Below, in pieces: positions 31,891 to 34,800 of a stretch of DNA of 64,000 nt (the stretch's first letter is position 1; each line of letters starts with the position of its first letter). The notes beneath the pieces were generated by a model. That model saw only the letters and a program-made list of their open reading frames with translations, made no database searches and was not told the DNA's origin. The DNA is from Scenedesmus sp. PABB004. Lineage: Eukaryota. The stretch is from the NCBI GenBank assembly GCA_014905635.1, contig JABVCE010000040.1, forward strand, positions 62,001 through 126,000, read 5' to 3'. The position numbers were made by a program, and so were the translations under genes.

Positions 31891-34800
31891 ATGATCGCGG
31901 CCGTCGCGGCGGCAGCGGCGGCCGCCGCCGACGGCGCGACCGCGCTCGGCCTCCTGCCGGCGCGCCGGCGCGTGCTGCTGGTCGACGAGGCGCGGGCTGC
32001 AGCGCTGCGGCTGCCGAGCCTCGCAGATCCGCCGCGCGGCGCGCCGCGACGAGCCGCGCGCGCGCCGCCGCGGCGCGCTGCGCTCACCGCCCGTCGCGCG
32101 GCAGCGAAGCGCCGCCCCGCCGCGCCCCGCCCTCCTGCGCGCGCAGGTGAGCTACCGGCCGCCGGAGGAGCTGCGCATGGTCATGCCGGAGCTCAAGAAC
32201 GTCGGCCGCAACTGGAAGGCGCGGCGCGCGACGCGCGCGCGGCGCGGGACGCGCGCGCGGCGCGCGCCTCGCACGGCGCGCGGCGAGCGGCGAGCGGCGA
32301 GCGGCGAGCGGCGAGCGGCGAGCGCCGCGCCCGTGCGCTCATGCCCTCCCCCCCCCCCCCCCTCCACCCCGGCTGGGCAGCTCTACATGCCCGAGACGGA
32401 GCGCCTGGCGACCAAGGTGCTGGAGAAGAGCGGCCTCAGCTCGACCGCGACCTACCTGCCGCCCGCGGTGTGCAGCGCCCCCCGGGCGCGCGCGCGCGCC
32501 GCTCGCTGCCTGGGGCGCCCGGCCCGGCCCAGCCCGACGCCGCCGCGCCGCGCCGGCGCCCGCGCGCAGGTGCACCCCTGCCTCACGCCGGAGCCGGACG
32601 GCAGCCACGGCGCCGCGCACTACGAGGCGCGCCCGCGCCGCCGCGCCGCCGCGCCCGCGCCCCGTCCTCGAGCCCCGCGCGCCGCGCCCGCGCGCCGCGC
32701 CGCCTTGCTGCTGACTCACTCGCCACCGCCTGGCGGCCAGGCGGAGATGGTGATGATTGGCGCGGTGCGCGAGCTGCTGGACAAGACCAGCACCAAGCCC
32801 AGGCGCGGCGCCGCGGCAGGCCGCTGCGCACACGCCCGTGGCGGCGGCGGCGCGCCCCGCCCTGCCTGCCCCGGGCCCCGCTGCCCTTGCCGTCACGCTG
32901 CCTGCACTCTGCCTCGCAGCGATGTGGACATCGTGCTGACCATGGCCTCCATCTGGTGCGCCACGCCCAGCCAGGCGTCGATGCTGGTCAACGCGTTCGG
33001 CATGCGGTGCGGGGGCCCCCCGTCTCGGCCCCGCGCTTGACGCCCCCCGCGCTCGCGCCGCGGGGCCGCGCCGCGCCGGCGCAAGCCGATCGGCGTGCAC
33101 GACAGACGGGCCGGCTGCCCACCCCGCGCCGTGCGGCGGCCCGCGCAGGCCTGACGTTCAGGCCTACCACCTCGGCGGCATGGGCTGCGCCACGGGCGTG
33201 CTGGCGCTCGCGCTCGCGCAGGACCTGCTGCGCGTGAGACGCGCGCACGCTGCCCGGCGCAGCGCCCGGCGCGGCGGGCCGCCGCCGCCCGCCCACCCGG
33301 TGCCGCCCACCCGCCGCCCACCGTCGCCGCCGCCTACCGCCGCCGCCGCCGCACGCGCCAGGCGCACCCGGGCGCGCGGCTGCTGTTCGTGGCGAGCGAG
33401 ACGACGAGGCGCGCGCGCTCGCCCCGCGCCGCCCGCGCTGCCCGCTGCGCGCTTCGCGCCATGCCCTCCTCCTCCTCCTCCCTCCCTGCCCCATCACACA
33501 CAACCGCTGCCCACGCTCCCCCTGCCCCCCCCCCCCCCCCCCGACACACACACACACACACACACACACACACACACACACACACACACACACACACACA
33601 CACACACACACACACACACACACACACACACACACACACACACACACACACACACACACACACACACACACACACACACGCAGCGCCGCCTTCTACCCCG
33701 GCATGGAGGTCTCACGCCGCGTCAGCAACGTGAGCGTGCCGTGCTGCGCGTGTGTGCTGCGCGCGCCGTGCACGCCGCTGCGCGCCGCCGCAGCCGCGCC
33801 GGCGGCTCGAGGCGCTGCCCTCCCGTCCAGCTGACACCCGCGTGGGCGCTGACACCCACGTGGGGCGTGCACGCCTAAACCCTGCCCGCTGACCCCCCGC
33901 TGCCCCCCGCGCTGACCCCCGCAGGTGATTTTCCGCATGGGCGGCACCGCCGCGCTGCTCAGCAACCGCCGCGCCGACGCGGCCAGGCGCGCATTGACGC
34001 GCCGCGCGGCCGCGCCGCCCGCGCGCTGCGCGCCGCGCAGCGCCCGCGCCGCTCCCTGCGCCACGCCGCCGCCGCGCCCAGCCAGCCCTCGCTCGCGGCG
34101 CGCAGGGCCAAGTACGAGCTGGAGCACGTGGTGCGCTTCCACACCAGCGCCGACGACGCCGCGTACAGGCGCGGCGCCCCGCCAGCTGCAGCGCCGCACG
34201 CGCGCGCGGCGCCGGCGCCCGCCGCCAACCACCCGTGGCGACCGACCGCGCACGCGGACCGTCCCGCGCTGACCTCCGCCCCGGGCGCCTCCCTCGCCGC
34301 CGCCGCAGGTGCATCTCGTGGTCGCCTGACGAGGAGGGGCACGTGGGCGTGTACCTGGCCAGGGACCTCGTGGAGCACGCGGGTGCGTGTGTGTGAGGGC
34401 CTGCGCGCGGGAGAGTGCCGCGCGCGCGCGCGCGCGCAGCAGCCCGCCGCCGGCGCGGCAGGGGCGCGCGCGTGCTCAGGCAGCGCCGCGCGCGCGCCGA
34501 CCCGCCGCGGCCGCCCCATGCCGCCGCCCCCCTGCCGCCGCCCGCAGGCGCGGCGCTGACGCTCGCGCTGACCGCGGTCGCGCCGCGCGTGCTGCCCTGG
34601 CGCCAGCTGGCCGCGGGCGCGGCCAACCTCGCCGCGCGGCGCGCCGCGCGCTGGCTCGGCGCGGCGCCGCCGCGGGCGTTCCAGCCCGACTTTGGCCGCT
34701 GCGGCGTCGATCACTTTCTCATCCATGCAGGTGTGACTGCGTGTAGTAGCAGTGTGTGTGTGACTGAGTGTGTGAGTGTGTGACTGAGGTGCAGTGTGTG

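Follow-up and report, generated by a model that had tools for sequence, protein, structure and literature searches.

GC-AG introns in a strict donor context in a 3-ketoacyl-CoA synthase gene and neighbouring genes of a very GC-rich stretch of Scenedesmus sp. DNA

In animals, fungi and plants, all splice sites other than GT-AG were reported to amount to about 2% or less (Frey and Pucker 2020, PMC7072748). Frequent or even majority use of GC-AG introns has already been published for GC-rich algae. In E. huxleyi, GC donors were reported at 56% of 241 hand-curated junctions and at 61-65% of the junctions from RNA sequencing, nine GC junctions were confirmed by reverse transcription PCR and Sanger sequencing, and the high share was blamed on a genome of 65% GC (Feldmesser et al. 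2014, PMC4028052); the genome GC content is elsewhere given as 65.7% (PMC8379373). In the pelagophytes Aureococcus anophagefferens and Pelagomonas calceolata, 14-17% of the introns were predicted to be GC-AG, which was likewise attributed to high GC content (bioRxiv 10.1101/2024.10.30.620910). In this study, we analysed a 64,000-nucleotide stretch of Scenedesmus sp. PABB004 (contig JABVCE010000040.1, positions 62,001 to 126,000; hereafter the window), in which a reading made from the sequence alone had placed a 3-ketoacyl-CoA synthase (KCS) gene with seven GC-AG introns among 15. We consider it about 85% probable that these seven intervals are genuine U2-type GC-AG introns of a functional gene and that they reflect a genome-wide habit of a nuclear genome of about 79% GC rather than a property of this gene.

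The window resembles E. huxleyi as described in PMC4028052 in that both are very GC-rich algal DNA with GC-AG as a major intron class; acceptors there are almost all AG, and ab initio models mis-call the GC junctions, giving 82% GT donors where RNA evidence gives about 37%. [quoted passage not shown] Its GC content also exceeds the reported values for the pelagophytes and for Diacronema lutheri (73%, PMC8379373). The average pelagophyte introns (103-177 bp; 10.1101/2024.10.30.620910) are similar to the present ones, but the same source describes intron-poor genes with 0.1-0.9 introns per gene, whereas 5-15 were found per gene here, and the GC-AG share here is about twice theirs. In animals, fungi and plants, ordinary GC-AG introns are U2-type with GC replacing GT, as here, although they are reported as about 1% or less of introns (PMC7072748) against about 30% in the curated genes. 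The sequence-only reading had measured the KCS gene against a baseline of about 1% of U2 introns; judged by the shares published for E. huxleyi and the pelagophytes, this baseline is inapplicable to very GC-rich algae. A literature search for a GC-AG-rich green alga found none, which is no proof that none is published. The KCS GC-AG introns are not a new kind of splicing; the present case is unusual in its strict heptamer rule.

The KCS gene was modelled with 16 exons, which when joined gave an open frame of 560 codons ending with a TAG stop at 36039-36041 (Table 1). The introns were 102-275 nt long; seven of the 15 started with GC and eight with GT, and the acceptor was CAG in every case. Hence, the earlier count of GC-AG introns was reproduced, and the seven donor positions named with it were all exact, being the first bases of the GC-AG introns in Table 1. 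All seven donors lay in the context AG/GCGCG (the slash marks the exon-intron border), whereas those of the eight GT-AG introns read GTG[T/C/A/G]G. The junctions given as examples, VLLVDE/VSYRPP, KP-S-DVDIV, R-AKYEL and Y-R-CIS, were also obtained from the joined exons. The heptamer AGGCGCG occurs 46 times on the forward and 28 times on the reverse strand of the window (74 in total), or about 6e-4 per position, and its presence at seven of 15 KCS junctions fixed by homology is therefore far beyond chance. As a separate observation, KCS introns 2-5 have lengths that are multiples of three and contain no stop codon, and one forward-strand frame stays open over 381 codons (31895-33037) through exons 2-6, so that gene calling based on open reading frames would read through these introns.

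The exons were scanned against Pfam one at a time, each with 15-codon flanks. Exons 3, 6, 7, 10, 11 and 12 matched PF08392 (FAE1_CUT1_RppA) at collinear profile positions (42-74 for exon 3, 102-132 for exon 6, 132-166 for exon 7, 191-212 for exon 10, up to 233 for exon 11, and 233-260 for exon 12). The single-exon scores were 12.7-34.4 bits, and the 27-bit cut-off was passed by exon 7 alone. A weak match to PF08541 (ACP_syn_III_C) was given by exon 15 alone (15.7 bits vs a cut-off of 26.6), and eight of the 16 exons had no relevant Pfam match when scanned singly. The domain order appears to match that of FAE1-type KCSs with PF08392 and PF08541. Compared with these, the N-terminus of the present protein is short, with 33 aa before the conserved LVDE-type motif, and the C-terminus carries a tail of about 110 aa (35700-36038, forward strand) that is rich in Ala, Asn and Gly and of low complexity, followed by a short acidic C-terminus. 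The closest homolog, P0054, has a similar but shorter tail.

Thirty residues around KCS exon 7 were used as the query of an exhaustive HMMER search, which returned 85 proteins. Homolog searches with exon 13 (E <= 0.001) and with exon 7 plus flanks (E <= 10) gave no match, and of the 596 pattern matches from scanning metagenomes with exon 13, none was confirmed by tblastn. In blastp against the joined model, P0054 showed 54% identity over aa 154-507 and P0025 showed 47% over aa 66-383; the other longest matches were P0075, P0022, P0059, P0084 and P0067. When the model was aligned with eight homologs using MAFFT, it was ungapped at all seven GC junctions relative to the closest homologs. At the junction of exons 2 and 3, P0025 and P0059 carry insertions of their own adjoining the junction. 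Furthermore, the columns of the active-site motifs GGMGC, HAGG and GN[TIV]S (GNTS in KCS), which we take to supply the catalytic Cys, His and Asn, were conserved in the homologs.

These alignments bear on the possibility that the GC junctions are an annotation artefact, the true introns using GT donors elsewhere or the intervals being translated, with GC boundaries arising only from ubiquitous GC dinucleotides. Such dinucleotides are indeed so common in the window that a signal-free dynamic-programming gene finder replaced most of the true GT donors by GC sites close by, agreeing with only six of 16 KCS donors and three of eight THI4 donors. Against this possibility, we listed all GT-AG alternatives within 45 nt of the KCS GC introns that are stop-free and preserve the frame, and scored the junctions with seven of the 85 returned homologs, those long enough for the purpose. 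No such alternative exists within this distance for introns 4, 5 and 10. At introns 1, 2, 8 and 11, all alternatives lowered the summed alignment score, and even the best of them changed it by -36, -17, -185 and -72, respectively (sum over the seven homologs). Thus, as far as can be judged from homology, no GT-AG alternative preserves the KCS protein at the GC junctions, and the earlier claim that the conserved KCS frame needs GC donors held. Moreover, among the 2-38 frame-keeping GT-AG or GC-AG options within 30 nt, the model junction ranked first by homology score alone at 15 of 15 introns. The flanking consensus was unused in this ranking; still, all GC winners carried the same heptamer. 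The junctions were free of indels, and the Pfam profile positions were contiguous. An artefact is accordingly extremely improbable, and the KCS junctions appear to be as well supported as sequence alone allows.

Splicing of the GC introns in vivo is probable from the frame, the homology and the composition: the exons have a GC content at third codon positions (GC3) of 0.96, and the introns have a GC content of 0.83 with more C than G on the sense strand. The GC content of the window is 0.72-0.82 in every 2-kb bin, and the sequence contains no N.

Comparison genes were chosen from six-frame Pfam scans of 1-46 kb of the window, the genes in 45-64 kb being outside the counts. Five of them were curated by hand from three-frame displays: THI4, a cyclin-dependent kinase (CDK) gene, an NCS1-family permease gene, a mitochondrial-carrier gene and a DEAD-box helicase gene (Table 1). 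Two automatic procedures were dropped and enter no count: 3-periodic Markov dynamic-programming gene finding without donor models, which overcalled GC donors, and gene finding with position weight matrices, which chained the whole window into giant genes.

GC donors were found in one of six introns of THI4, two of six of the CDK gene, two of seven of the permease gene, two of five of the mitochondrial-carrier gene and none of seven of the helicase gene. The acceptor was CAG in all 46 curated introns of the six genes. The sequence-only reading had implied that the KCS gene is an oddity, and this view did not survive the comparison: four of the five other genes contain GC-AG introns with the identical heptamer, and the KCS share (7/15) does not differ significantly from that of the others (7/31; Fisher p = 0.17). 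The KCS gene is not special in its GC-AG use. Since the neighbouring genes do likewise, its GC-AG introns look like a normal splicing habit.

This result also bears on gene-specific regulation, in which the KCS gene would have accumulated weak GC donors and poor splicing efficiency or retained introns would modulate its expression, a role proposed for GC-AG introns in animals. The KCS gene does have the highest share of GC introns among the six genes, retention of its introns 2-5 would keep the frame open as described above, and high intron retention was reported in E. huxleyi (PMC4028052). However, the excess over the other genes is not significant, and the shares in the mitochondrial-carrier and CDK genes are similar. 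In addition, stop-free frames are the rule at 79% GC, with 604 open stretches of 50 aa or longer in the six frames, and the insertions that retention would add are absent from the homologs. Gene-specific regulation is therefore very unlikely.

The donors of the curated introns were then compared as a set. All 14 GC donors read AG/GCGCG, with G or C as the next base. Among the 32 GT donors, GTG at +1 to +3 was invariant, G stood at +5 in 31, and position +4 was C in 20 and A in eight; G at +3 was thus common to all 46 donors. This makes G/GYG[C/A]G the donor consensus of the genome. Every GC donor has AG at -2/-1, but only 10 of the 32 GT donors do (Fisher p = 1e-5), and C occupies +4 in all 14 GC donors vs 20 of the 32 GT donors (p = 0.009). 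Ordinary GC-AG introns carry A at +3/+4 (GCAAGT type), whereas the present donors read GCGCG[G/C]. The statement in the sequence-only reading that the KCS donors lack a match at +3 to +6 is true, but the textbook match of the GCAAGT type to U1 is missing from the GT donors too; because these also lack A at +3, its absence is a property of the genome consensus and not of the GC class. Likewise, the expectation that GC donors need a near-perfect site stands relative to the local consensus, as the invariant AG at -2/-1 indicates, and fails for the textbook GCAAGT match. Thanaraj and Clark in 2001 are said to have noted a stricter conservation of the other donor positions in GC-AG introns. The GC donors here are those that fit the local consensus perfectly, which is the usual compensation rule of GC-AG introns shifted to a GC-rich consensus.

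The heptamer was also examined outside the donors. The sense strand of five genes, KCS among them (12.7 kb, made up of 6,150 exonic and 6,567 intronic nt), was scanned for AGGCGCG. Fourteen of the 15 occurrences were donors; there was a single exception, overlapping the KCS intron 12 acceptor, and none lay inside an exon. A drop in coding score was seen at eight of 65 AG/GCGCG sites outside the two training genes vs 53 of 973, 10 of 193 and 14 of 386 sites for control heptamers, a test that is indicative only, as it missed three of six GC donors later curated outside those two genes. The U12-type donor motif is [A/G]TATCCTT, and none of the curated donors was of this type. Among 39 introns, a blastn comparison for an introner or transposon-derived family gave only four weak low-complexity matches; the curated introns form no repeat family, and an introner origin is thus unsupported.

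These features suggest how the GC donors would function. The T at +2 would be replaceable by C only where the remaining site is optimal, which means the exact heptamer AG/GCGCG. The AG at the exon end and GCG at +3 to +5 may then supply the recognition by U1 and U6 that is lost through the mismatch at +2. The likely origin would be GC-biased mutation or fixation, by which AG/GTGCG donors turned into AG/GCGCG wherever splicing tolerates the T-to-C change.

The canonical 5' end of U1 is ACUUACCUG, with which C at +4 would mismatch. This raises the alternative of a distinct recognition, in which the donor AG/GCGCG would be recognised by a U1 small nuclear RNA (snRNA) of diverged or variant sequence whose 5' end pairs with GCGCG, or by another factor, and the genome would have two classes of 5' splice site rather than one relaxed class. 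It would account for C at +4 in all GC donors beside its partial occurrence in GT donors, together with G at +3 throughout, since a strengthening of U1 pairing would predict A at +4. On the other hand, the GT donors share the GTGCG core, which fits a single consensus, and a mutational origin from AG/GTGCG yields, and so explains, the invariant C at +4 without new machinery. No U1 or other snRNA gene was found in the 64-kb window by an Rfam scan. We regard distinct recognition as unlikely. In a bolder form of the idea, no nuclear genome outside haptophytes would be richer in GC-AG introns than this one, possibly that of a green alga, with C at +2 licensed only by the exact heptamer and read by a diverged or second U1 pairing with GCGCG, and hence a true second major-type 5' splice-site class; this we consider doubtful.

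Several points weigh against reading the seven intervals as GC-AG introns of a genome-wide habit under such a rule. The case for splicing in vivo is built only from frame and homology, and the homologs are themselves predicted proteins, few of which were long enough for scoring. Hand curation was used for all five comparison genes; three of their models (CDK, NCS1 permease and mitochondrial carrier) lack the 5' end, and the introns of the DEAD helicase were counted only up to its long last exon. Because C at +4 mismatches canonical U1, its invariance in the GC donors is unexplained by simple U1 pairing. The avoidance of AGGCGCG in exons is not significant (none observed vs 1.5 expected from codon shuffling; P = 0.2). 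Finally, within the AG/GYGCG context, C is found in 14 of 19 curated donors and T is kept in five, and the coding-drop scan showed about 12 further donor-like AG/GTGCG sites; the context therefore permits C and does not force it.

If GC-AG introns are a habit of this genome, gene finders restricted to GT-AG would mis-model roughly one intron in three. The heptamer offers a simple annotation rule, in which C at +2 is accepted only inside AG/GCGCG; 14 of the 15 sense-strand heptamers in five genes are donors. The locus would also be a clean natural case of compensation within the 5' splice site under extreme GC pressure.

Table 1. Coordinates of the curated genes, introns and other features in the window.
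Feature	Position	Strand	Remarks
FAE1-type KCS gene	31891-36041	+	ATG to TAG; 16 exons, 15 introns
KCS exons 1-8	31891-31989, 32147-32218, 32381-32467, 32570-32626, 32741-32802, 32920-33006, 33149-33233, 33362-33408	+	
KCS exons 9-16	33684-33729, 33925-33986, 34106-34168, 34309-34382, 34548-34730, 34946-35035, 35271-35383, 35586-36041	+	
KCS intron 1, GC-AG	31990-32146	+	gag/GCGCGG, 157 nt
KCS intron 2, GC-AG	32219-32380	+	aag/GCGCGG, 162 nt; GGCGAGC tandem repeat at 32270-32322
KCS intron 4, GC-AG	32627-32740	+	gag/GCGCGC, 114 nt
KCS intron 5, GC-AG	32803-32919	+	cag/GCGCGG, 117 nt; interrupts Ser codon
KCS intron 8, GC-AG	33409-33683	+	gag/GCGCGC, 275 nt; long (CA)n run after C run, 33520-33683
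KCS intron 10, GC-AG	33987-34105	+	cag/GCGCGC, 119 nt; PF08392 profile contiguous over junction
KCS intron 11, GC-AG	34169-34308	+	cag/GCGCGG, 140 nt; PF08392 profile contiguous over junction
KCS GT-AG introns, first four	32468-32569, 33007-33148, 33234-33361, 33730-33924	+	
KCS GT-AG introns, last four	34383-34547, 34731-34945, 35036-35270, 35384-35585	+	
THI4 gene	CDS 20457-18024	-	complete 355-aa frame; six introns, one GC-AG
THI4 intron 4, GC-AG	19062-19284	-	aag/GCGCGG; Thi4 profile runs from position 106 at the end of the upstream exon to 107 at the start of the next
PSTAIRE-type CDK gene	6382-8366	+	5' end not found; six introns, two GC-AG
CDK GC-AG intron	7453-7669	+	gag/GCGCGC, between ...YTHE and VVTLWYR...; Pkinase profile contiguous within one position
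CDK second GC-AG intron	8052-8210	+	cag/GCGCGC
NCS1-family permease gene	24852-27234	+	5' end not found; seven introns, two GC-AG
NCS1 permease intron 3, GC-AG	25559-25703	+	cag/GCGCGC; PF02133 profile count contiguous
NCS1 permease intron 5, GC-AG	26090-26219	+	cag/GCGCGG; PF02133 position 225, split Arg codon, 227
Mitochondrial-carrier gene	5300-3537	-	5' end not found; five introns, two GC-AG
Mitochondrial-carrier GC-AG intron	4021-4184	-	aag/GCGCGG
Mitochondrial-carrier GC-AG intron	3762-3885	-	cag/GCGCGC
DEAD-box helicase gene	39902-36453	-	seven introns, all GT; junctions without per-exon Pfam check
Thiamine pyrophosphate (TPP) riboswitch aptamer RF00059	20762-20871	-	63.7 bits, full length; THI4 start codon (20457) about 300 nt downstream

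Chlorophyte THI4 genes are reported to carry TPP riboswitches, and most red-lineage algae to use THIG (PMC4260697). The riboswitch ahead of THI4 in the window is accordingly a hint of the green lineage. The full-length aptamer upstream of THI4 (Table 1), with GT-type donor-like sites at about 21160-21320 further upstream, suggests riboswitch-controlled splicing in the THI4 5' untranslated region, as in chlorophyte THI4 genes. The NCS1 permease gene lies about 4 kb from THI4 on the opposite strand, and the annotation of its Pfam family names cytosine, purines, uracil, thiamine and allantoin; a functional tie to thiamine is conceivable.

An 11-mer, CCTAAACCCTG, has four exact copies in the window, at 33874-33884 and 35222-35232 on the forward strand and at 20086-20096 and 19712-19722 on the reverse strand. 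Each of these copies reads in the sense direction within a GT-AG intron of KCS or THI4 and precedes the 3' splice site by 31-40 nt. With one mismatch allowed, eight matches were found vs 0.07 expected; one-mismatch copies at 4135-4169 are antisense within a mitochondrial-carrier intron. The 11-mer may serve as a branch-point box or be a telomere-like relic. CTRAY or CTAAA was found in the last 70 nt of seven of the 39 introns of the five genes other than the DEAD helicase, and the introns contain about 9% A, so that the branch-point signals look very weak. The THI4 and CDK introns also contain repeats of the CCCT/CTCC type and the GGGT type.

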